A DNA stretch of 32,000 nt from Allobaculum fili (GTDB lineage: Bacteria; Bacillota_I; Bacilli_A; Erysipelotrichales; Erysipelotrichaceae): positions 30,001 through 62,000 of the forward strand of contig NZ_JAHDSX010000007.1 in the NCBI RefSeq assembly GCF_020969955.1. The letters run 5' to 3'. The notes under the pieces were generated by a model, which made no database searches, was not told the origin of the DNA, and was given only the letters and a program-made list of their open reading frames with translations. Shown one piece after another: positions 2,572 to 25,322 of the stretch (position 1 is its first letter; each line of letters starts with the position of its first letter). The position numbers and the translations under genes are program-made.

Positions 2572-2648
2572 AGGCAGATCCTCCTGCAAAAAAATAATTA
2601 CCTGCCAATTTTACGCCTTGAAAATAACAGAAGAATTGGCGGAACCCG

Positions 2649-2693
2649 AAAAAGCAAAATGAGAGAAAAATGAGCGGGTTTCCAAACCTCATC
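2649..2693 (-). promoter_or_regulatory. Hairpin plus U-tract in the pyrG 5' leader (possible attenuator)
   Basis: The minus strand reads ATGAGGTTTggAAACccgCTCAT followed by TTTTTCTCTCATTTTGCTTTTT, about 80-120 nt upstream of the pyrG ATG. Confidence 0.35.
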
Positions 2694-2844
2694 AAGCCCT
2701 TACATAATCGCTTAAAACAGCCATATATTCTGTGAATCCTGTAAATGCTTTTGTTGTCACTATTTGTGCACGTATTATACACAAAGTCTAGTCCTATCTT
2801 TTGCTTATGCGTGTTATGTATGGACAACTTGACGAAGATGTTAC

Positions 2845-3145
2845 TTTTTACGCACTTTAAAAAGAAGAAATTTGTTAACTTGCGTAAAAAGAACGCGAAA
2901 ATTCGTTCGGAAACTAGTTGAAATCCTAAGGAGTTCGATATACTGAAATTAAGTGAAAAGCAGTTTCTTTTTTGGAAAAAGTTTACGAATCTGCTTTTCG
3001 GACGGTATGCTTACCTGTCGGATCCAGGCGTTTTTTTAAACGGATTTTCGCTGAAAACCTGACGTTCTTCTTTCGCTTTTTTGACGAATATGCAAAAAGA
3101 AGAACGTTTGAAAAGAAAACCGTTTTGAGTGTTCTGTTCTTCTTT
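2845..3145. repeat. Cluster of long-spaced inverted repeats in the pyrG/WYL intergenic region
   Basis: TTTTTACGCA (2845-2854) pairs with TGCGTAAAAA (2881-2890). GAAAAGCAG (2955-2963) pairs with CTGCTTTTC (2991-2999). ACGTTCTTCTTT (3062-3073) pairs with AAAGAAGAACGT (3096-3107). A second GTTCTTCTTT copy sits at 3136-3145. Confidence 0.6.
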
Positions 3146-3200
3146 AAGGATCATTTCATGGATTTGAGCAAAATGAGATGCACAGAAAAAAGCCATAGAG

Positions 3201-3255
3201 TCGACACCTGCGATCAAACGTGTAAAATACGGAATTCAGAACACAAGATTCTGAA
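3201..3255 (+). promoter_or_regulatory. Putative promoter and operator of the WYL regulator gene
   Basis: TCGACA (3201-3206), 16-nt spacer, TAAAAT (3223-3228). The inverted repeat TTCAGAA-N7-TTCTGAA (3235-3255) sits at the predicted transcription start. Confidence 0.35.
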
Positions 3256-3327
3256 CGCCAGACAAAGCCAGCCGCCAAGGTGCGCGGCTGATGCAACTTT
3301 GGAAAAACAGAATGAGGAGGAAACAGA

Positions 3328-4281
3328 ATGAACCGAACTGCCCGCTGCATCCGAATGCTTATGATCTTGAAAAGCCGACAGACGGTCTGTACCTCTGAAC
3401 TTGCAGAGCTTCTCGAGACCAATCCAAGAAACATTCGTGAATACAAGAAAGAACTGGAACAAGCCGGCTATACCATTAAAACGGTACGCGGTGCCGGAGG
3501 CGGCTATGAGCTTGAAGGCGGAGCCGTCCTGCCTCTGCCTTTATATAACGATGAATCGATCGATATTCTGACCACGATCCGAGACAGTCTGCTGTCCACG
3601 CCCAATCAGCCGTATGCGGCCAAGGGTGCGGAACTGCTTGATGAAATTATCGCGTCCAACCCGGTCAGCGATCCGGAAAAGCCGATTTACTTTACCCCGA
3701 GCCGGATTAACGATTTCTCTGAATCCGCAAAGGACGATTTAAGCCGGATCCGCAAAGCGGTGTTCCGTCGCCAGCAGATCTCGATTCTGTACCATTCCCG
3801 CGAAAGCAAGGATCCCATCCGTCGTGTCGTTGATCCGTACGATGTCGTCTGCTCGGACGGCAACTGGTACTTTGTCGGCTTTGACCATTATCGTCAGGCT
3901 GTCCGAACGTTTCGGATTTCGCCGGCGCGCCTTTTAAAGCTCGAACTTCTCGATACGACATTCGAACGGCAGGCAGATTTCAAGCTCAAGGATTATCTGG
4001 GTACTTCTGCCCTTACACGCGCCGACAAGGAAATTTATCTGATTGAAGTGCGCAAGGAACAGTGCCGCTTCTTTGAAGAAATTCGCTGGGGCCAGAGCTT
4101 TGCAAAAATCGGCGAACAGCGCGAAGGCTGGGTGACCTATTCTTTCTTCTGCGACGATCCGGCGCATATCGAACGCAATCTGTTCCGTTTTGGAAACGAT
4201 GTGATTTTGCTGGCCCCCAAATGGCTGGCTAAGGAATATACGGACAAGCTTGCTTCCATCCTGGATCTTTACAGGGATTAA
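3328..4281 (+). CDS. WYL domain-containing transcriptional regulator (HTH + WYL + C-terminal extension)
   Basis: 317 aa, with GAGGAGG 7 nt upstream. N-terminal HTH: CTSELAELLETNPRNIREYKKELEQAGY. WYL core: VVDPYDVVCSDGNWYFVGFDHYRQAVRTFRISP. Confidence 0.9.
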   Translation: MNRTARCIRMLMILKSRQTVCTSELAELLETNPRNIREYKKELEQAGYTIKTVRGAGGGYELEGGAVLPLPLYNDESIDILTTIRDSLLSTPNQPYAAKGAELLDEIIASNPVSDPEKPIYFTPSRINDFSESAKDDLSRIRKAVFRRQQISILYHSRESKDPIRRVVDPYDVVCSDGNWYFVGFDHYRQAVRTFRISPARLLKLELLDTTFERQADFKLKDYLGTSALTRADKEIYLIEVRKEQCRFFEEIRWGQSFAKIGEQREGWVTYSFFCDDPAHIERNLFRFGNDVILLAPKWLAKEYTDKLASILDLYRD

Positions 4282-4323
4282 GCAAACTTTTCCCGCTGAA
4301 TTTTTACTGCTGTTTATTTCTCG

Positions 4324-4357
4324 ATCAGGCGGACGTGTATCCGCCTGATTTATTTTT
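4324..4357 (+). terminator. Rho-independent terminator after the WYL gene
   Basis: A perfect 10-bp stem ATCAGGCGGA/TCCGCCTGAT with a 6-nt loop, followed by TTATTTTT. Confidence 0.75.
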
Positions 4358-4485
4358 GAGTATGATAGTCAGAAGAGGGTCCTTTTGCCTGACCAGACCG
4401 CCCGCCGTTCGCATACGTTTGGACAAGGACGGAATGCTTCGCTTTCATTCCAGTCCATCCGCATCAGGCAAGAGGAAATGAGGAG

Positions 4486-6045
4486 ATGGTGCCTATGAGC
4501 GAGAAACGACGAATGATTCACACCAATGAAGCGGCAGGCGCCCTGAACTGTCTGCGCAAGGTAGTTTTAATACGGCATCAGAATGGGGCAGTCGATGATT
4601 TTGCACTGCCCGACGGTCACGAATTTCGCCGCCGCCTGGAAGAGCTTTTTGAAAACGATCCGCTCCCCTGTGGACAAAAGGGAGATTCAAGCGAGCGTTC
4701 CTTTGATATTTTGCGACATCACGACAAGGCGCGAAATCTTCGCTTTGAAAGCCGGGGCATTTGCACGACGATTCCGGTTCTGGAATTTGATCGGGAAGGC
4801 TCCATCGAACAGGGTAAGCCGCTCTGGATCGTCTGGTATCCCGTGTATGGAACAAACCCAAAAGATACGATGCTGCATCGGCTGTACGCGGACTGTGCCG
4901 TTCTGGCGGCCAATGGAATCGATGTGTCGTCCATTCGCTTCATCTGTCTGCGCAGCGATCTGATCAGCGATCCAGATTTAAAAGCGGACGAGATTTTTAC
5001 CGTCTACGATCATCTGCGCAAACCGCGCGGGGGATTTCGCAAGCCGACAGCCATTGAAATGGTTCGAGATCTCGAACAGAAAGAACCTTTCGGCAAGTTT
5101 CTCAATCTGGCGGCAGAAGCGCTGGATCAGGCGCTTGATCTTTCACTCGATGAAATCGCCGTACGCAAAACCAAACTTTGTTCGAGCGCCCACTGTCCCT
5201 TTTATGAAGAGTGCTATCAGAAGAGAACGCTGCCAAATGATTCCGTCGCACTTCTTTCTTCCTGCGCTGCTGCCGGCCAGATGATGGAAAAAGGCATTGT
5301 TACGCTCGATCAGGTTCCGGGTGAAGCGGTCGAGGGCAGTCCTTTTCAGTACGCGCAGATCATGGCGGCCAGAAATCCAAAAGGCTATTTTCTGGATGCG
5401 GGCGGGGTGGAAGAATGGTTTTCCAAACTGACGTTTCCGCTTTCCTATCTGGATTTTGAATGGGACACGTACGTTCTCTCCCCCTATGCCGGCATGCGGC
5501 CGTTTGATGTGCTGTGCTTTCAGTATTCTTTGCATGTCGAGACCAGAGAGGGAAAGCTAAGCCATACTGCCTTTTTTGAAACGGGAGACTGCCGGGAAGC
5601 GTTTATTCGATCGCTGCTGCGCGATCTGCCAAAGACGGGAAGCATTCTTGTCTTCAATATGGAAGGCGCGGAAAAGCTGCGTCTGCGTCAGCTGGCCGAG
5701 CAGTTTCCAGAGTATCGAGAACAGCTGGAATCGGTCTGCGAGCGGATGATCGATCTTGCGCTGCCCTTTGAAAGCGGCTGCTTTTATAATCTTGCTCAGC
5801 GTTCGCACAGTTCTCTGAAAACGCTGCTGCCGCTCTTTGCCCAGGATGTCAGCTATCACGATCTGGACGTATCCAACGGCGTACAGGCGGTCAACGTATA
5901 CCGCCAGGCACAAAATGAACGCGGATTGCAGCAGCTGCAGCTGGCCAGAGATATCAGCGAATACTGCTCGCTCGATACGCTGGCCGAAAAGAAACTGGCC
6001 GATGGCCTGAAACAGAAACTGGAGGAAGAAGAATGCCAAATCTGA
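4486..6045 (+). CDS. DUF2779 family protein (Cas4-like Cys-cluster N-domain plus exonuclease-like C-domain)
   Basis: 519 aa. The C-terminal block is YLDFEWDTYVLSPYAGMRPFDVLCFQYSLH...ILVFNMEGAEKLRL...SLKTLLP, as I recall it for DUF2779. Cysteines are C22 plus C-x4-C-x5-C (CSSAHCPFYEEC). The start could instead be ATG 4495. Confidence 0.8.
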   Translation: MVPMSEKRRMIHTNEAAGALNCLRKVVLIRHQNGAVDDFALPDGHEFRRRLEELFENDPLPCGQKGDSSERSFDILRHHDKARNLRFESRGICTTIPVLEFDREGSIEQGKPLWIVWYPVYGTNPKDTMLHRLYADCAVLAANGIDVSSIRFICLRSDLISDPDLKADEIFTVYDHLRKPRGGFRKPTAIEMVRDLEQKEPFGKFLNLAAEALDQALDLSLDEIAVRKTKLCSSAHCPFYEECYQKRTLPNDSVALLSSCAAAGQMMEKGIVTLDQVPGEAVEGSPFQYAQIMAARNPKGYFLDAGGVEEWFSKLTFPLSYLDFEWDTYVLSPYAGMRPFDVLCFQYSLHVETREGKLSHTAFFETGDCREAFIRSLLRDLPKTGSILVFNMEGAEKLRLRQLAEQFPEYREQLESVCERMIDLALPFESGCFYNLAQRSHSSLKTLLPLFAQDVSYHDLDVSNGVQAVNVYRQAQNERGLQQLQLARDISEYCSLDTLAEKKLADGLKQKLEEEECQI

Positions 6046-7019
6046 TTACGCATGCCCTGTTTGCGGACGATGTGCTCGAACGCTTGAACAATCCTTTGTG
6101 TAACGCGAAGCGAAAGATGTTTCTGACAGGAAGCCAGGGACCGGATTTTCTGTTTTTTCATCACAGCGATCCTTTTTACGATATTCTCAAGCCTTCCGAT
6201 ATCCGCAAATACGGCAGACTCTTTCATAACGAGCACGTCAATGACTTTTACTTAAGCGCGCTGCATTCGATTGAAAACGAAAAAAACAAGGACATTCAGG
6301 ACGATCTGATCGTCTACGTGTGCGGCCATCTTTGCCACTGGGCGCTCGATTCCACGATGCATCCGCTGATTTATTCGAAAACAGGCAACTGCAAAGGCGA
6401 CAGTTCCTGGCGCCACCATCAGTTTGAATCGATGCTGGACGCGGCCATGCTCAAATACCGGAAAAATCTCACGATTGCCGACTATGACTTTTCGAAGGAA
6501 TGCTTTTCCACATCGCCGCAGACCGCACGCGCCATGGCGCGGATTTACGTTCCGGCGATTGCCGAAATTTATGGCGAACACGTTGCGCCTTCGAGCTTTC
6601 TGGAGGTACTGAAAGACTGGCGGCGCATTGAACGCCATTTCCGGGATCCGAAAGATCTTAAGAAAAAGCTGCTGCGCCCGCTGGAAAAAATGACGCGTCT
6701 GGAGTTTCTGATGACCGGCTTTTCCATTCCGGCCCATTACGAAGACAATGTCGACATATGCAATCTGCTGCACAGTCCATGGCGCCATCCGGTATCCGGA
6801 GAAGCGACCACGGCATCGGTCTTTGATCTGATGGAAACCGCGCTGCAGAAAGCTTTGCGGACCATTGATCTTTTCGAAACCTGTCTGGCTCATCCAGGCA
6901 GCCCGGAAGACGAACAGGCGTTCCTCGATTTTCTGGGCGATCGCAACTACGAAATGGATATGCCCCCTGGATTTCTTCCGACCTATTTTGAACTGGCCGA
7001 TCTGGATCAGAAAATCTGA
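6033..7019 (+). CDS. Zinc-dependent phospholipase C-like family protein, cytoplasmic
   Basis: 328 aa. His/Asp motifs are ITHALFADD, GSQGPDFLFFHH and GHLCHWALDSTMHP. No signal peptide. The ATG overlaps the upstream gene by 13 nt. Confidence 0.75.
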   Translation: MPNLITHALFADDVLERLNNPLCNAKRKMFLTGSQGPDFLFFHHSDPFYDILKPSDIRKYGRLFHNEHVNDFYLSALHSIENEKNKDIQDDLIVYVCGHLCHWALDSTMHPLIYSKTGNCKGDSSWRHHQFESMLDAAMLKYRKNLTIADYDFSKECFSTSPQTARAMARIYVPAIAEIYGEHVAPSSFLEVLKDWRRIERHFRDPKDLKKKLLRPLEKMTRLEFLMTGFSIPAHYEDNVDICNLLHSPWRHPVSGEATTASVFDLMETALQKALRTIDLFETCLAHPGSPEDEQAFLDFLGDRNYEMDMPPGFLPTYFELADLDQKI

Positions 7020-10641: not shown

Positions 10642-11746
10642 ATGACCAGACTGTCCCGTAAAGACCGTTACCAGGATCTGCGTCAGACGATCAGCGACCA
10701 GAATGGCGAAGCGAAAACTTCCGCGCCAAGTGCGCAAAAAAAATGAAAAGACCGTTCGCCTGGCCGCACCGGATGTCAAAAGCGAAAGCCGTGCCAAAGC
10801 GGCTCCGGTAAACAGTCGTGCACAATCGACAAACCCTGTTCTTGAAGATCTGCTTGGAGAAGTAAAACAGTACAACCTCTCCAACGGCGATCTTGTCAGT
10901 GACGATACACAAATGCAGATTCTGCATACCATTAACAGCGACCGAAACCCCGAAGCGGATAAGCGAAACCGTCATCTTGAAGAGATGGAAACCGCCGCTC
11001 CAGGTTCCACGACGCTCAATCTCTACAGCTCCGATCTCATGGATCTGGCTGCCAGAAGCAAGAGCCAGAAAGAAGAAGCGGCCCAAAAAGCAGCCGCCCA
11101 GGAAGATCAAGAGCCAGTAGAGCGCGAAATTGAAGTGGATTTAAGCGTACTCGAGTCCGCTTCAAAAAAGCATTCTGCCCGCGATGACTTCTTCGCAAAA
11201 CCCGAATCCGAACCAGAAGAGGAAACGACAGAAGCATTCGAAGAAGAATACGAAGAGAAGCCTAAAAGCCGGCGCAAAAGAAAACCGTTCTTTAAGTCCC
11301 GCAGAAAATCCAGAGACGATGAAGACGAATATGTCGAAATCGATGAGGAAGAAGAGGTGCCTGGCGCCTTTGATGACGACGCTCTCGTCGAAGAGGATGT
11401 CATTATCGCCGCCCCTGCAAAACGCTCCGAATTTTCCTACGACGATCAGGATCGCCTCTTTGATGAAGACTATAACGATCTCGATGCAGAAGACGAAGTC
11501 GAAGAAAAGCGTCCGACACACCGCAAAAAACACGCCCGCAAAGCCAGAGCAAAAAAGCCGGAACTGCATACGCAGGATGAAGAAGACGAAAGTGAAGAAT
11601 ATTCCCGTCCTCGCGCTTCCGTTTACGATCAGGAAGATCAGCCTGTTTCCAAAGGCGCAGCCATTTTCATGATCGTCTGTGTCATCCTTCTCGTCATTCT
11701 GATTATTCTTACGATTTTCTGGATGTCCAAACTCGGTATTTTCTAG
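10642..11746 (+). CDS. Highly acidic, low-complexity, C-terminally membrane-anchored protein with an apparent frameshift at an A8 tract
   Basis: The intact ORF is 10703-11746 (347 aa). It is D/E/K-rich and has a C-terminal TM helix, AAIFMIVCVILLVILIILTIFW. The only strong RBS (AAGGAGG, 10629-10635) serves ATG 10642. That 34-codon frame stops right after A8 (10736-10743). Confidence 0.55.
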
Positions 11747-18868: not shown

Positions 18869-19891
18869 ATGCCGATGAAATATATGACGGTACAGAAGGC
18901 ATCAAGAAAATGGGACATCTCCGATCGCCGCGTGCGCTATCTCTGTTCCAATGGCCGAATCCGCGGAATTCTGCAGCAGGGAAGGCGCTATCTGATTCCG
19001 GAAAACGCAGAAAAGCCTAAAGATGAGAGGGTAAGCCGCAATAAAGCGGCTAAAGAGCGTAAATACAACGACTTTACCCGGCTCGATCTGCTCAAGAAGC
19101 TGGTTAAGGAACTTCCGCAGGAAGATCCTCTGACCCAGGCGGTCGGCAGGAAAAACTTTATTTGTGAATTTGCCAGTTCCATCTGCGCCCAGCAGGGAGC
19201 GGATCTCAGTTTTGAACAGGCTTCGCATATGGTCGACGGTCAGGTCGAACCAGTTTTTTCCCTTGCCGAACATCTCGACGTTCGAGGCGTTCACGATGCC
19301 TGGATTTATTTGTTCAGCTGTCTGAAGGAAAAGAAAACGCTCAGCCAGAACATGATTCGCGCGGTCCATTCGCTGGCCGATCTCAATCATTCCTTTTCGC
19401 GCGGAAAGTATCGGAAAGTGCATGTCCGCATCTGTGCGGGTGCCGATCGTTCCATATCCCTCGATCTGATCGAACCCAAACTCAGTGAACTGCTCAATCT
19501 GAACTCGCGCTGGAAAAAGGAAATGCATCCTATTGAACGGGCTACGCGCTTTTATCTCGAGTTTCTGGCGATTCATCCCTTTGAAAATGCCGACAAAAGT
19601 GTTGCGCAGCTGCTTCTCTGCTACGATCTGATGCAAAACGGCTATCCGCCTTTGGTCTTCATACAGGAGGATCTGGACGAATGGCAGCAGGCCGTAGAAG
19701 AATACGAAAGCGACCGCAATGCTAAGCGGATGGTTCGTCTGGTCCGCCGCAAGATGGAAGAGAAGATGGAAGCCGTTCTTGCCGCAAACCGGGCCAAACG
19801 AAAACGCAAGGCGGCCCGAAGAAAAAAGATTGCCCAGACGCTGCAGAGGCAGCTGCCGTCCTTTGAACAGACGGAAAGTCTGCGCTCCTGA
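18869..19891 (+). CDS. HTH domain plus Fic-fold protein with a degenerate Fic motif
   Basis: 340 aa. The N-terminal HTH-like segment is MTVQKASRKWDISDRRVRYLCSNGRIRG. The Fic core reads HPFENADKSVAQ instead of HPFx(D/E)GNGRxxR. The C-terminal tail is basic. Confidence 0.8.
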   Translation: MPMKYMTVQKASRKWDISDRRVRYLCSNGRIRGILQQGRRYLIPENAEKPKDERVSRNKAAKERKYNDFTRLDLLKKLVKELPQEDPLTQAVGRKNFICEFASSICAQQGADLSFEQASHMVDGQVEPVFSLAEHLDVRGVHDAWIYLFSCLKEKKTLSQNMIRAVHSLADLNHSFSRGKYRKVHVRICAGADRSISLDLIEPKLSELLNLNSRWKKEMHPIERATRFYLEFLAIHPFENADKSVAQLLLCYDLMQNGYPPLVFIQEDLDEWQQAVEEYESDRNAKRMVRLVRRKMEEKMEAVLAANRAKRKRKAARRKKIAQTLQRQLPSFEQTESLRS

Positions 19892-20112
19892 TGCATATGC
19901 AGCAGTAAAACCGGAAGAAATAAGAATCCACAGATACGGATGCTTTTGTCTTCTGGTTTTGTTTCTTAACGAATCCTGAATCCTCTATTAAGCTTCTTTA
20001 CAGCCGTCTTTTGAAATGTTGATCCGTGCTATAGTACAAATATCGAAAATCCTGTGTTCCTTTCGTCTGAACTGGACTGAACGTGAACCGGATTCCTTAT
20101 GGAGGAAACAGA

Positions 20113-21318
20113 ATGGGAATTCTCAGATGGGGAATTGACGCAGCCGCTTCAGCGTATGCGGATCAGCCCAAAGAAGTATTATTTGCGGAAGGATTAAACA
20201 ACGATGTCCTGGCCGTTCCCGCAACGGCAAAAGGAAAAAAAGGCACGCCAAACGTCTTAACTGACGGCTCCGTCTTTAACGTTGGAATCAACCAGGCCGC
20301 ACTGCTCATTGAAAATGGTCAGGTTCATGATTTCGTCATTGCGGACGATGAAAAAATGACCGGTCAGTATATTTACGATACGTCCCGTGAGCCGTCCTTA
20401 TTAAACGGCGGAACCCGCGAATGGAAAAATGTCTGGAATCTGGTGAAGAGCCGTTTCCAGTACGGCGGCCAGTCTCCAAACCGCATGCAGCTGGTGTATA
20501 TCAACCTGAAGGAAATCACCGAAAACCCGGTTGGTGTCGGCAAAGTACCCTTTATCGATACATATCTCGGTACACGTCTTCTTTTAGGCGTTCATGGCTA
20601 CTATACATTCCGGATTTCCAACCCGGCAGCGTTCTATGAAAATCTGCTGATGGATCCGTCGAAAAAATACCGTAAGGAAGAAATTACTGAACAGCTGCGC
20701 GTGGAAATGATGCCGAAAATTTCCGGTGCGCTGACCCGCATTGCGCCTGCCTGCGTAAATGGCTATCAGGATATTTACGTTCACGATACCGATCTTGCCA
20801 ACGCGCTCAACGAAGCGCTCGGTCAGGAATGGCTCGACAAACGCGGCATTGAACTCGTGAAAGTCGCTCTGAACCCGGAAGTTGCCCCAGCAGATCTGGA
20901 ACGCGTCATGCAGCTGGAAAATGCGCGCACGCTCTCCAACTCCCAGATGGCGTTCGGTTCCATGGTCAATGCGCAGAACAATGCGATGCAAAACGCTGCA
21001 GCCAATGCCAATGGGGCAGTAAACGGCTTTATGGGAATGAATATGGCCGGTGGCAATTCGCAGACCGCCTCGCTCCTTGCCCAGAAAATGGAACAGGAAA
21101 AGGCAGCGCAGGAAGCAGCAGCCAAAGCAGCGGCTGCGCCTGCACCGAGCAGTGATAGCCAGACCTGGGTTTGCGCGAACTGCGGCGAAACCGCAACTGG
21201 CCGATTCTGCGCAAACTGCGGGACGTCAAAACCTGAAGTGAAATTCTGCCCGAACTGCGGAGCGAAAACGACTCCAGGTTCCAAATTCTGCACCAACTGC
21301 GGAACGAAACTCAGTTAA
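20113..21318 (+). CDS. SPFH (band-7)-like protein with C-terminal double zinc ribbons (YdjI-like)
   Basis: The track start is GTG 20083. ATG 20113 has GGAGGAAACAGA upstream. The C-terminus reads CANCG...CANCG...CPNCG...CTNCG. An Ala/Gln-rich linker precedes it. Confidence 0.75.
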   Translation: MGILRWGIDAAASAYADQPKEVLFAEGLNNDVLAVPATAKGKKGTPNVLTDGSVFNVGINQAALLIENGQVHDFVIADDEKMTGQYIYDTSREPSLLNGGTREWKNVWNLVKSRFQYGGQSPNRMQLVYINLKEITENPVGVGKVPFIDTYLGTRLLLGVHGYYTFRISNPAAFYENLLMDPSKKYRKEEITEQLRVEMMPKISGALTRIAPACVNGYQDIYVHDTDLANALNEALGQEWLDKRGIELVKVALNPEVAPADLERVMQLENARTLSNSQMAFGSMVNAQNNAMQNAAANANGAVNGFMGMNMAGGNSQTASLLAQKMEQEKAAQEAAAKAAAAPAPSSDSQTWVCANCGETATGRFCANCGTSKPEVKFCPNCGAKTTPGSKFCTNCGTKLS

Positions 21319-22999: not shown

Positions 23000-23023
23000 A
23001 TATGTAACTGGTTACCTATTATA
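23000..23023. promoter_or_regulatory. Putative MarR operator overlapping the -10 of the MarR-flavodoxin promoter
   Basis: Inverted repeat ATATGTAAC-tg-GTTACCTAT (23000-23019, one mismatch). The minus-strand TGGTATATAAT overlaps its right arm. Confidence 0.45.
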
Positions 23024-23088
23024 TACCATCCCATCGTTCTGCTCTCCATCTTTTTTTCGGGTAATATTTTCAGTGGCGAAAAATTTCA

Positions 23089-23122
23089 GAAAAAAGGCCC
23101 GAAATCCATATAAGATTTCAGG
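23089..23122 (-). terminator. Terminator after the 442-aa gene
   Basis: On the minus strand, CCTGAAATC-ttatatg-GATTTCGGG (one mismatch) is followed by CCTTTTTTCT. Confidence 0.6.
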
Positions 23123-23155
23123 CTGTAGGATATGCAGTGATCTTGTGCGTGCGGA

Positions 23156-24484
23156 TCAGCCGAGTTTCTTACGGCGAAGCGTTTTCGAATTCAGAATGAC
23201 TGCGTCTTCAAAATGGTCATAAATTGCATCTCTATGTAGATCAGTGAGTCTGCGTCTGGCTGTCGGATTTTCTGGGTCTTCGATGTTGATTTTATAAGTC
23301 AATACCGTATAGCTGTCCTGAGGAATTTCCCAGAAGGAAACGCAGTAGTATGGCTCGCTGCCCTCCTCTTCTTGCCAGAACGAAAGGGAGGAGCGGATTT
23401 TGGTCTGCTTTCCGGATTTCAGCAGGACGTCCAGTTCTACAGTTCGGATGGCTTCCCAATACGTTTCAACGATAAATCGGTTTATAGTTCCTTCATTTGC
23501 CGGGGTCTCCGATTCGATCTTGGAATTGTTTTTCGCATCGATCAGTTCGTTTCTGAATTGGGTCATATGGGAAATAAAAATTCGGTCATACACATTTAAG
23601 GATCCTATTTCCGGACTTTTCTCAGGAATGACGGATTGCTCATCGATTTTAAGAGATACATCAAGCACAGTGAATTTTTTACACCACGGATCCATCTTCT
23701 GGTCTTTATCACTTGTCTGATAAAGCAGCGATCCCTGGCCGAGCTCAAAATATTCAAGCTGATATCTTCGAAATGTTAAATAGGCCATTGATCCCGCATC
23801 GTCCTGCAGATTCACGTAACAGCCGCCCTTCGAAACGCGTTTTCCAAGCCATTGCAGTCGAGGCTTTATTTCCTTTATATAGCTTCGTACCCGATCGAGA
23901 ACAGGAAGAAAATCCTGAACTTTACGATCGTAAAGCCATTCATTAAAAAGATTTACGCCTAGGACACAATCAAACTGCATCAGATCGCATTCTCCTTCAC
24001 TTATCATCGTAATCTTTCGAAAGGATTTTTCCCTGGAAACAAGCCGTTCAAAAGGGATAGCCGATGAGGAAGTATCGAGTACATAAATGGGCGATTGAGG
24101 AAATCTCTTCACAGCAGCCCCGGCATAAAGCAGCGCCTCTGGTCCCCATACGAGAATGGACTGTCCATTGACCGATGGCATATGTTTCATAAGCAGATTC
24201 AAATTTAAGATCAGACGCATAAAGCGCAAATATGAGGATTCCGACTGCCAGTTTCTCCTTTTCAGAACAAAACTGTCCAGATGAATTTCGCCAAAATGCG
24301 CATATCCATTTTGATCACATGTGTAATCTTTCATTACATCCGCAAGACCAAGGCGGTCAGCATAAGCGATAACGGATGGATTCTCATCCCGAATTTTTGG
24401 AACGATAGAGCTCCAGGAGGGTAATTTCGCACTTTTCTTTTTCTTTTTGGAAGACTTTGCGGAAGACTTTTTCTTTTGACTCAT
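23156..24484 (-). CDS. Hypothetical protein: poly-Lys N-terminus, methyltransferase-fold-like middle region, unknown C-terminal half
   Basis: 442 aa with GAGGAG 5 nt upstream. The blocks ILVWGPEALLYAGAAV...IYVLDTS...FDCVLGVNLFNEW...SKGGCYVNL follow the order of class-I SAM-MTase motifs I, II, IV and post-IV, but the Gly-rich loop is degenerate. About 43-45% GC. Confidence 0.7.
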   Translation of the reverse strand: MSQKKKSSAKSSKKKKKSAKLPSWSSIVPKIRDENPSVIAYADRLGLADVMKDYTCDQNGYAHFGEIHLDSFVLKRRNWQSESSYLRFMRLILNLNLLMKHMPSVNGQSILVWGPEALLYAGAAVKRFPQSPIYVLDTSSSAIPFERLVSREKSFRKITMISEGECDLMQFDCVLGVNLFNEWLYDRKVQDFLPVLDRVRSYIKEIKPRLQWLGKRVSKGGCYVNLQDDAGSMAYLTFRRYQLEYFELGQGSLLYQTSDKDQKMDPWCKKFTVLDVSLKIDEQSVIPEKSPEIGSLNVYDRIFISHMTQFRNELIDAKNNSKIESETPANEGTINRFIVETYWEAIRTVELDVLLKSGKQTKIRSSLSFWQEEEGSEPYYCVSFWEIPQDSYTVLTYKINIEDPENPTARRRLTDLHRDAIYDHFEDAVILNSKTLRRKKLG

Positions 24485-24728
24485 ATGGACTCCTCGTATA
24501 AATCCTGATCAGTTTCAGCAATTTCCCTTACTTGACGAACTTCGAGGTGCGTTAACATCTTGAACAGGTCAGGATACTTTTCATTTGATAAACGATCCGC
24601 GTTCTGAACCTGGACCAGCCTTTACTTTCTATAAAAAACTGGTAAGGCCCTGAAAACTCTATTCTTTCTGAGATACAGACGGTAAGGAGTTCGGCAGAAC
24701 GGGCTTTCAAATCCATAGTTTAACAGAC

Positions 24729-24774
24729 AAAAAGCTGAAAAGAGTGAATGGGCTGATTCGCTTTTCAGCTTTTT
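24729..24774 (-). terminator. Terminator after the 176-aa gene
   Basis: A perfect 10-bp stem AGCTGAAAAG/CTTTTCAGCT (24733-24742 / 24761-24770), flanked by an A-run and a T-run. Confidence 0.75.
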
Positions 24775-24791
24775 GGCGTATCCGAATCGAT

Positions 24792-25322
24792 TTATAAAGC
24801 CGGCAGCTCTGGAGCAGTGGAAATATCCGCGTCAATTGAAATTTCTGTCTCAGCGGCCCGTACAAACACGAGCTGCGGTCCAAGTTCTTCAATTTCCTCA
24901 GCGGTGATAGTATCAAAGTCAATATCCGCCATTCGATGAATCCGGACAATATAGGCGCCCTGTGCGTATTTGAGCAGACCGACATTGATTCCTGAGGTAT
25001 ACACAATTTTTCCTTTTACATCTTTTGGTCTTGCTGTGGCTACAATCGGGGCATCCACAATGCCTTTGTACTTTCGAAACCATTCCACAATTCCGGGATG
25101 GCGGGAAACAATCACTTTGGAAGAATCAAAAGGAAGTCGAATGTAATAAATCGCCCGCTCATCGCTGGGAAGATCGCTGTCATACGGCTTTTTGTACTGA
25201 CAGGCAATCCGGCCTGTGAGAACCTCAATTTCAAAATCTTCTTCAAATGCGGCCTGTGCATGTTCATAACCGACTTGCTGCAGCCGCATAAATCGTAAAG
25301 CACTTTTCGGAATTGTTTTCAT
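24792..25322 (-). CDS. Hypothetical protein with a C-terminal Csx16/DUF1874-like domain (tentative)
   Basis: 176 aa with AAAGGAG upstream. The segment VIVSRHPGIVEW...GKIVYTSGINVGLL...GAYIV...ITAEEIEELG matches the order of blocks I recall for Csx16 (xTRHxGAxEW...GDxVIGTLPxxLA...GARY...LSxEEL). This has not been HMM-verified. Confidence 0.7.
   Translation of the reverse strand: MKTIPKSALRFMRLQQVGYEHAQAAFEEDFEIEVLTGRIACQYKKPYDSDLPSDERAIYYIRLPFDSSKVIVSRHPGIVEWFRKYKGIVDAPIVATARPKDVKGKIVYTSGINVGLLKYAQGAYIVRIHRMADIDFDTITAEEIEELGPQLVFVRAAETEISIDADISTAPELPAL

Follow-up and report, generated by a model that had tools for sequence, protein, structure and literature searches.

The stretch of DNA analyzed here, a window of 32,000 nucleotides (nt) from Allobaculum fili (assembly GCF_020969955.1, contig NZ_JAHDSX010000007.1, positions 30,001–62,000 of the forward strand), carries three consecutive genes for a WYL-domain transcription regulator, a DUF2779 protein, and a protein of the zinc-dependent phospholipase C (PLC)/P1 nuclease superfamily—here called PLC-like. 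This locus is a core-genome operon of the Erysipelotrichales and not a mobile defense cassette. With a probability of about 0.55, we read it as a vertically inherited WYL–DUF2779 operon, in which a regulator of the single-stranded DNA (ssDNA) sensor type controls a DEDDy exonuclease bearing a noncatalytic iron–sulfur (Fe–S) Cas4-like module, and onto which an old neighbor, the PLC-like gene, was fused in this clade. The biological role is probably a LexA-independent response to DNA damage or ssDNA. A first-pass annotation, made from the letters of the window, had proposed the trio as an undescribed damage- or phage-responsive module. The damage-responsive half of this proposal remains the best hypothesis, and the locus more likely handles DNA damage than phage. 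The three domains named at that stage are confirmed by Pfam, with E-values of 1.5e-18 (WYL), 8.9e-32 (DUF2779), and 1.2e-10 (zinc-dependent PLC).

The linkage of the three genes was assessed in 80 loci from a scan of one genome per species, annotated by phmmer with the proteins of the window as queries (individual loci are cited by number). The WYL gene lies directly upstream of the DUF2779 gene in 59 of the 80 loci and within ∼1 kb of it in four more. The junctions span −53 to +67 nt and are mostly below 50 nt, and the genes overlap by 17 to 26 nt in the nearest relatives (L087, L088). Such tight junctions argue for an operon; the two genes would hence be co-transcribed in most relatives and often be translationally coupled. 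Our literature search returned no paper on this operon or on a connection between WYL, DUF2779, and PLC-like genes, and nothing on PF00882 or on the WYL domain together with Erysipelotrichaceae. That the WYL-linked module is undescribed hence stands. It does not stand as a unit of three: the PLC-like gene follows DUF2779 directly in only 47 of the 80 loci (with stop and start −16 to +2 nt apart in most of these), and in 14 more it lies 2 to 6 kb downstream, behind genes for PG-binding/SpoIID-like, CorA, radical-SAM, FtsH, or LrgB proteins. There, an M19 dipeptidase gene follows the distant PLC-like gene, as in L076, L089, and L090, with a 4-nt overlap in L090. One relative bears a PLC-like gene without DUF2779 within 8 kb, and the PLC-like genes of Clostridia stand alone, with neither WYL nor DUF2779 nearby. 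The PLC-like gene would thus be an old syntenic neighbor that joined the operon only in this clade, and, having joined late, it does not have to share a function with the nuclease. In the window itself, the translational coupling of DUF2779 and PLC-like gene noticed earlier is borne out by a 13-nt overlap of stop and start (6033–6045), with GGAGG located 7 nt 5′ of the ATG at 6033.

The cluster occupies one position in the core genome, running from pyrG through the cluster to the DHODB-like/GltD-like genes, efp, and cmk, in many genera—Allobaculum, Ileibacterium, Dubosiella, Absicoccus, Floccifex, Holdemanella, Faecalicoccus, and others. The trio of the window is flanked by housekeeping genes: a divergent CTP synthase gene (pyrG) upstream, a DHODB-like/GltD-like oxidoreductase pair, and efp, cmk, der, gpsA, HU, and msrA. 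The GC content across the trio is ordinary. Homologs of the DUF2779 and PLC-like proteins come from Erysipelotrichaceae, and the nearest named genome is that of Allobaculum mucilyticum with a DUF2779 identity of 53%. Between species, the identities of the trio track those of GltD, EF-P, and PyrG (Spearman rho of 0.41–0.81 in eight of nine comparisons; DUF2779–pyrG, at 0.27, is not significant). Since the identity of the trio rises and falls with that of its flanks, vertical descent is indicated. A conserved housekeeping locus without variable context—which the first-pass annotation had itself named as an argument against its proposal—is largely what this clade displays, in the pyrG–gltD-like/efp/cmk position as well as in the divergence along with the flanks.

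PafBC of mycobacteria, DriD of Caulobacter, and SiwR of M. smegmatis are ssDNA-sensing WYL activators of LexA-independent DNA-damage responses. The regulator of the window, annotated at first as a 317-residue helix-turn-helix (HTH)–WYL protein, has the same HTH–WYL–WCX architecture, with an HTH_11/Rrf2-type HTH at residues 3–63, the WYL domain at 138–198, and WCX at 240–311 (6.5e-6). Among PADLOC models, it matches generic and Cas-associated WYL models (generic WYL model, 6.9e-38). Its best relatives among solved structures are PafBC (6sj9, 4e-9), PafB/PafC (7p5x), and DriD (7u02/7tzv), while CapW (7tb6) is marginal at E = 0.11. At least 63 of the 65 orthologs share the recognition-helix residues of the HTH (R34, N35, and G55–Y60) and Y155, Y181, R193, and R201 of the WYL pocket. 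The motif region reads DGNWYFVGF, i.e., a canonical WY(L/F) motif, and an R-x-F-R segment comes after it. As with SiwR, the genes that the regulator presumably controls lie next to it (PMC10693628). The differences to PafBC, DriD, and SiwR lie in a similarity limited to the WYL domain, in the co-transcription of regulator and presumed target in most species, in the target itself—a putative DUF2779 exonuclease instead of recA, didA, or DinB-like genes—and in the host, a Firmicute. Sensing of ssDNA has been reported for DriD, PafBC, SiwR, and CapW (PMC9186387, PMC11804915, PMC10693628, PMC11662680). Our regulator is a homodimer-type factor of winged HTH (wHTH), WYL, and WCX domains, and its WYL pocket most likely senses ssDNA, as these factors do. 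The ligand is not certain, however, as a WYL member of L. plantarum senses cyclic di-GMP.

We infer that the WYL regulator would control its own operon, and the relatives bear a candidate site for this. A systematic inverted-repeat search yielded a conserved palindrome of 19 to 23 bp, [GT]T[GT]ACAT-N5-ATGT[CA]A[CA] (in short, GTNACAT-N5-ATGTNAC). A position weight matrix built from 12 sites gives 43 matches of ≥17 bits in 1.06 Mb of loci versus two in shuffles. Of the 63 loci with a WYL gene, 33 have the palindrome in the 650 nt preceding it; of the 12 loci without one, none has it. This test is partly circular because 12 loci supplied the seed sites, and ∼20 loci beyond these have the palindrome at the same position. 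It is found nearly always immediately upstream of a conserved gene for an ankyrin-like protein (∼115 amino acids) that precedes WYL. Where this gene is absent, as in the WYL-first loci L055, L073, and L042, it lies 35 to 76 nt upstream of WYL itself, with DUF2779 immediately 3′ of WYL in L055 and L042 and ∼1 kb further on in L073. Example sites are L071 5421–5439, L038 785–803, and L055 4769–4787. Second sites precede the neighboring gene of an AI-2E-family transporter (L033 69, L046 4234, and, probably, L016 4238 and L022). With its 7–5–7 core, the palindrome differs from the PafBC and DriD sites; ssDNA binding and activation are predicted for our regulator.

In 34 of 67 loci, though not in the window, the gene directly before WYL encodes the ankyrin-like protein (LLNAVW...GADPNWIFNGYPILLHAV...ALGFALDRGIGEM...GIVPK); examples are L076 5495–5833, L065 5632–5997, and L003 6649–6981. 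Its Pfam Ank_2 match (8e-5) does not reach the cut-off. The module may include this protein as a fourth member. The open reading frame (ORF) that precedes the WYL gene in the window (2972–3331, 119 amino acids, TTG start), whose end overlaps the WYL start codon in an ATGA, has no homolog in relatives; it was considered as a diverged ankyrin-like gene and rejected, as it has no similarity to ankyrin-like proteins.

The DUF2779 protein bears the presumed enzymatic activity. Its Pfam match covers the C-terminal third of the protein, and D320 and E322 (of D-F-E), N388, E393, D420, and Y490-x3-D494 are present in all 120 homologs. The motifs of DEDD exonucleases—the D-x-E of ExoI, the acidic residue of ExoII, and the (H/Y)-x3-D of ExoIII—are thus all present. 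Toward the N terminus, C229, C234, and C240 are likewise found in 120 of 120 homologs and C19 in 112, seven of the others being N-terminally truncated. Hence, the Cas4-like cysteines and the DFE...FQYSLH module pointed out in the first-pass annotation are real and invariant in 112 to 120 of the 120 homologs, but the Cas4-type D...ExK site is replaced: its D/E/K columns read P94 (116/120), Y115 (115/120), and a hydrophobic residue at 117. These columns were set by a MAFFT alignment, at ∼25% identity, with plasmid DUF2779 proteins that bear VDIL...EVKSS, and the alignment agrees with the order of strands in the AlphaFold2 (AF2) model (predicted local distance difference test (pLDDT) of 87.9). 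As the D/E/K columns are replaced while the four cysteines are kept, we predict a Cas4-like domain that is catalytically dead but still Fe–S-binding, joined to an active DEDDy exonuclease. The Cas4-like domain would then be a module that binds DNA ends or senses redox state rather than a second nuclease, while the DEDDy domain would degrade DNA in 3′–5′ direction. Together, they might process damaged or aberrant 3′ ends of DNA, or ssDNA, in a LexA-independent damage response.

Pfam Cas_Cas4 matches weakly in four of 25 members (best E = 0.014), which fits the prediction of a dead Cas4-like domain; PADLOC Cas4 models do not match the DUF2779 protein of the window, and a search of the DUF2779 hidden Markov model (HMM) against the PDB gave no matches. 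With the whole-protein model only, Foldseek recovers, weakly, nothing but folds of the polymerase-exonuclease and RNase H-like types: the exonuclease domain of the family B polymerase 5mdn with a probability of 1.00 but a TM score of only 0.24 over 212 columns, and RNase H domains at E of ∼1e-2. In the literature, PF11074 (DUF2779) has been placed as family F.17 in the 3′–5′ exonuclease clade of RNase H-like proteins, joined to DUF83/PD-(D/E)XK (PMC3985635). MMSYN1_0389 of the minimal cell JCVI-syn3.0 is quasi-essential and has been described as a fusion of a Cas4-like and a DEDDh-like domain with MrfB, a mitomycin-repair exonuclease, as the best match of its exonuclease half; the HHpred support for the Cas4-like domain concerns a Mycoplasma member (PMC13621843). 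With this protein, whose prototypes are Cas4 and MrfB, ours shares the Pfam family, the two-domain layout, and the DEDD acidic residues, with tyrosine in place of histidine. The Erysipelotrichaceae clade is, however, its reverse: it keeps four cysteines and has replaced D/E/K by proline, tyrosine, and a hydrophobic residue, whereas the Mycoplasma protein is described as keeping the catalytic D/E/K and only two cysteines (PMC13621843). In M. bovis, a transposon insertion in a DUF2779 gene is tabulated among disrupted genes beside DnaB, HolA, RecD, and NrnA (PMC7373297).

A distant DUF2779 gene was also seen within a defense-like cluster on the Aliarcobacter cryaerophilus plasmid NZ_CP099557 (1–8144; L091), together with genes for an AAA ATPase, a 97-residue WYL protein, a PDC-S06 AAA_13 ATPase (3e-275), a DUF6602/NucC-like PD-DExK nuclease, and an overlapping protein of 308 amino acids. 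The latter, coupled downstream, was considered as a PLC-like partner and rejected, since it has no Pfam or PADLOC match and is not PLC-like.

The third protein is a cytosolic enzyme by its sequence features, predicted to be a tri-zinc phosphodiesterase of a large Firmicute family. Zn_dep_PLPC (PF00882) matches residues 6–172 with 42 bits against a cut-off of 26.8 and is precomputed for nearly all homologs. A full set of candidate ligands—H7, D38, H65, H99, H102, D106, H110, H128, H129, and E132—is, together with D136 and M1-P2, invariant in 117 to 118 of 118 homologs, and the AF2 model (pLDDT 95.7) is all-helical. The N terminus (MPNLITHALFADDV...; MPNLITHALFADD) bears no signal peptide, as annotated at first, and no hydrophobic leader. 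For nearly all of the 147 representatives, the alignment with the family profile begins at residue 1, which is not the pattern of secreted enzymes. The wider family comprises 3779 clusters (50% identity; E ≤ 1e-3). Of its 147 top representatives, 121 start with Met-Pro; most of the rest begin with MS or MA, or their start was mis-called just 5′ of an internal MP, as gene callers often set the starts in this family upstream of such an MP. The first histidine always follows five residues after the proline, giving a Met-Pro-x4-His signature (window 6033–6053; representatives P0241–P0387). The zinc ligands of PLC and P1 nuclease include the free amino group of the tryptophan at the N terminus of the mature enzyme, with a spacing of W1...H6 in P1 and of W1...H14 in the PLC of B. 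cereus. The Met-Pro start and the first histidine five residues on, as in P1 nuclease, hence suggest an N-terminal zinc ligand, which Pro2 probably supplies after removal of the methionine.

Zn_dep_PLPC shares its Pfam clan and tri-zinc site with the S1/P1 nucleases. With B. cereus phosphatidylcholine-specific PLC, C. perfringens alpha-toxin, and Penicillium P1 nuclease, the PLC-like protein has the Zn_dep_PLPC profile, the all-helical fold, and the full set of His/Asp/Glu ligand candidates in common. It differs from them in lacking a signal peptide or propeptide, in a predicted N-terminal proline instead of tryptophan, and in an extra C-terminal helical region of ∼150 residues without a PLAT domain. 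A solved relative was found neither by sequence profile nor by fold: its HMM found nothing in the PDB, Foldseek of the model against the PDB and BFVD gave noise only, and hhalign gave no significant alignment with either B. cereus PLC or P1 nuclease.

The two genes of the core pair overlap or sit less than 50 nt apart in most of the 80 loci, including L087 and L088. In A. fili, they are separated by the strong terminator that had already been recognized at first reading and by a spacer. Since the genes overlap in the nearest relatives and the spacer of ∼210 to 216 nt is found only in near-identical contigs, terminator and spacer represent a split specific to this species, which would leave DUF2779 and the PLC-like gene as a separate two-gene unit. 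A second, independent origin of the split was considered for Ileibacterium valens (L032) and rejected: the gap is similar, but there is no terminator. For DUF2779, the ATG at 4495 is a better start than position 4486: it has a GAGGAG 9 nt 5′ of it and was also the gene caller's choice on a contig nearly identical to this one (99.5% identity in the 216-nt spacer). This leaves 137 nt between terminator and gene instead of the 129 nt initially stated.

The inverted repeat GGAATG-N9-CATTCC, noted earlier in front of the DUF2779–PLC pair, does exist, but as an operator it is at chance level: for 6-nt arms with a spacer of ≤12 nt, ∼0.4 repeats are expected by chance in the WYL/DUF2779 spacer, and upstream of the WYL gene in the window it has no counterpart. 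It is probably a chance match. The variant GGAAT-N10-ATTCC, seen upstream of WYL in at least five genera, was rejected as a shared operator because its matches are coding sequence—for the C-terminus GMIIFIP of the AI-2E transporter and the ankyrin-like motif GIGEMIP. The repeat upstream of the WYL gene (Table 1) is a possible autoregulatory operator, though as a candidate that is not significant, and it is not conserved in L087 and L088. A motif shared by the two upstream regions of the window, before WYL and before DUF2779, was sought and discarded, as only the ribosome-binding site AATGAGGAG is common to both. A structured leader or riboswitch before DUF2779 is not indicated either, as folding is no better than in shuffles (z = −0.63), and an Rfam search of the whole window gave no match.

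Table 1 Features of the locus in the window from Allobaculum fili; positions count from the first letter of the window.
Feature	Position	Strand	Basis or remark
wHTH–WYL–WCX transcription regulator, 317 amino acids	3328..4281	+	ORF list, Pfam
DUF2779 ORF, 519 amino acids	4486..6045	+	preferred ATG at 4495
N-terminal Cas4-like PD-(D/E)XK domain of DUF2779 protein (putative), residues 1–299	4495..5391	+	alignment with plasmid DUF2779 proteins, tallies over 120 homologs
C-terminal RNase H-like DEDDy 3′–5′ exonuclease domain of DUF2779 protein (putative), residues 300–516 plus stop	5392..6045	+	Pfam, invariant residues, Foldseek
Zn-dependent PLC/P1-nuclease-superfamily protein, 328 amino acids	6033..7019	+	Pfam Zn_dep_PLPC
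Intrinsic terminator after WYL gene	4323..4357	+	11-bp stem at 4323–4350 (6 G-C), then TTATTTTT to 4357
Best sigma-70-like promoter match upstream of WYL, TCGACA-16-TAAAAT, 10/12	3201..3228	+	consensus match; such sites no commoner than in shuffles
Inverted repeat ATTCAGAA-N7-TTCTGAAC, 7/8 arm match, just 3′ of −10 box	3234..3256	.	∼0.17 expected by chance
Inverted repeat GGAATG-N9-CATTCC of the first-pass annotation	4431..4451	.	present

Beyond the locus, the window contains an ABC transporter, glycosidases, and flavodoxin/MarR genes. The intergenic region between pyrG and WYL (2590–3327) is unusually long with 738 nt and bears no Rfam match. Between efp and cmk, a protein of 347 amino acids is encoded (10703–11746), which is highly acidic, lysine-rich, and of low complexity with a C-terminal hydrophobic segment; in relatives, this slot is filled by an unannotated gene for 307 to 387 amino acids. 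An HTH–Fic protein (18869–19891) adjoins an SPFH/Band-7 protein with double zinc ribbons (20083–21318), and the GC content falls to 43% in 23001–25000, where an ORF of 442 amino acids (23156–24484) has no Pfam match. This region may have been acquired horizontally.

The pairing of a nuclease with a membrane lipase had been taken in the first-pass annotation for the logic of abortive infection. Put as a mechanism, the trio would act against phage or by abortive infection under repression by WYL: ssDNA arising during infection would release the regulator, and nuclease and membrane-attacking phospholipase would kill or protect the cell. The regulator lends itself to this idea, since a regulator-first wHTH–WYL–WCX protein is the known layout of BrxR and CapW, the repressors upstream of BREX and CBASS operons: the three-domain architecture is the same, a homodimer on a ∼20-bp palindrome is likely in both cases, and CapW likewise senses ssDNA (PMC11662680). 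The matches to Cas-associated WYL models of PADLOC, the fast evolution of the trio, the distant DUF2779 genes on plasmids—one beside a PDC-S06 candidate with a NucC-like nuclease and a small WYL protein—and the loss of WYL where the effector genes stay, as expected for a repressor, point in the same direction. However, the regulator reads NWYFV and does not bear the RWHVR motif of the CapW and BrxR repressors (PMC11662680), its match to CapW is weak, and the genes downstream of it are not those of a known defense system. For the DUF2779 and PLC-like proteins, PADLOC gave no match; tblastn against phages found no copy of either gene, and IMG/VR holds one distant DUF2779 and no PLC-like gene. 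The only exception to the housekeeping and metabolic surroundings is the HTH–Fic gene ∼12 kb away. With a fixed, syntenic core-genome position in many genera instead of a variable island, divergence in step with the flanks, and no PADLOC or phage matches, the locus is not a defense island. The PLC-like gene is, moreover, not an obligate partner, and nothing indicates that its product acts on lipid; the Cas4-type site is degenerate and predicted to be dead; and a DUF2779 member is quasi-essential in a minimal cell that faces no phage pressure (PMC13621843). We therefore consider a defense system the least probable of the explanations weighed here.

Two further explanations concern how far the three genes belong together at all. 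In one, the DUF2779 and PLC-like proteins form a two-enzyme pair for nucleic-acid end processing under WYL control, the PLC-like protein cleaning 3′ ends as a single-strand nuclease of P1/S1 type or as a 3′-phosphoesterase and the DEDDy domain resecting them. The overlapping or abutting stop and start codons in most of the 47 adjacent loci, the invariance of all candidate zinc ligands, the clan and tri-zinc site common to Zn_dep_PLPC and S1/P1, the M-P-x4-H start, which mirrors the P1 rather than the B. cereus PLC spacing, and the cytosolic location, where characterized PLCs are secreted, would all fit. The pairing is limited to one clade, though; elsewhere, the PLC-like gene is found with the M19 dipeptidase, near cell-wall genes (PG_binding, Mur ligase, Ddl, Alr), or alone. 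Pfam matches the PLC model and not S1-P1, and neither profile nor fold searches give a link to a solved nuclease; we hence regard such a pair as improbable. The opposite explanation, that the three genes are functionally unrelated and held together by synteny in compact genomes while WYL regulates other targets such as the AI-2E transporter or the ankyrin-like gene, appears just as doubtful. It could draw on the palindromes upstream of the transporter gene (L033, L046, and, probably, L016 and L022), on L075, where the palindrome stays with the ankyrin-like gene 5.6 kb from WYL, on the clearly separable PLC-like gene, and on the terminator between WYL and DUF2779 in A. fili. Yet most of the 59 loci, from distant genera, have WYL and DUF2779 overlapping or abutting, a link far tighter than that to any other neighbor, loci without WYL are also without the palindrome (0/12), and in L055, L073, and L042 the palindrome lies closely upstream of WYL itself.

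The vertically inherited WYL–DUF2779 operon remains our preferred reading, and several observations weigh against it. The tight coupling of DUF2779 and PLC-like gene in 47 loci could mean a real functional pairing. The trio diverges much faster than its flanks, with a median identity of 31 to 41% versus 72 to 80%, and such fast evolution also fits a gene in an arms race. Four Dubosiella-like loci (L001, L023, L031, L044) keep the DUF2779–PLC pair at the same position without WYL. The plasmid DUF2779 genes, though all distant (∼25% identity; Campylobacterota, Salinibacter, and others), include one that adjoins the PDC-S06 candidate defense system with its 97-residue WYL protein. On the side of regulation, the palindrome goes with the ankyrin-like gene no less than with WYL (L075, L064), so that the WYL protein is only its putative binding factor. 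In the window, the best palindrome match scores 9.2 bits and lies elsewhere, with nothing of ≥8 bits in either intergenic region, and the whole Allobaculum clade lacks both palindrome and ankyrin-like gene; for this species, regulation is hence deduced from homology only. Finally, the terminator suggests that WYL and the DUF2779–PLC unit are now transcribed separately in A. fili, and a promoter sought for this unit was not identified. Among the Dubosiella-like loci, the AI-2E transporter gene abuts DUF2779 in L001, which has no WYL, while Dubosiella newyorkensis (L018) keeps WYL.

The WYL–DUF2779 operon presents an undescribed WYL factor with an adjacent target predicted to process nucleic acids, and it is without the hallmarks of a new defense system. 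This calls for caution, as a combination of WYL regulator, nuclease, and “lipase” resembles such a system and yet marks a core locus here. The Met-Pro-x4-His signature, in an uncharacterized cytosolic family of at least 3779 clusters, suggests that proteins which are not secreted build the PLC/P1 metal site in a new way. A question of structure and function is posed by the Cas4-like domain, whose decay is reciprocal: cysteines are kept and catalytic residues lost in this clade, and reportedly the opposite in Mycoplasma. The Dubosiella-like loci and Dubosiella newyorkensis offer a natural loss-of-regulator comparison, and with Allobaculum, Holdemanella, Faecalibaculum, and Dubosiella, culturable hosts are at hand.

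Mollicutes and Erysipelotrichia are related lineages. On a wider scale, WYL–DUF2779, with the PLC/P1-like protein as a clade-specific partner, might be the core of an undescribed ssDNA-triggered, LexA-independent pathway of DNA-end processing in both, in which the dead Fe–S Cas4 domain targets the DEDDy exonuclease to DNA ends. We offer this extension tentatively and consider it unlikely in full; if true, it would explain the quasi-essentiality of the presumed DUF2779 ortholog in JCVI-syn3.0. DUF2779 is a widespread family and an unexplained quasi-essential gene of that minimal cell, and its tie, throughout one family of gut Firmicutes, to a regulator of the ssDNA-sensor type gives a testable idea of what it may be: a damage-induced 3′–5′ exonuclease.

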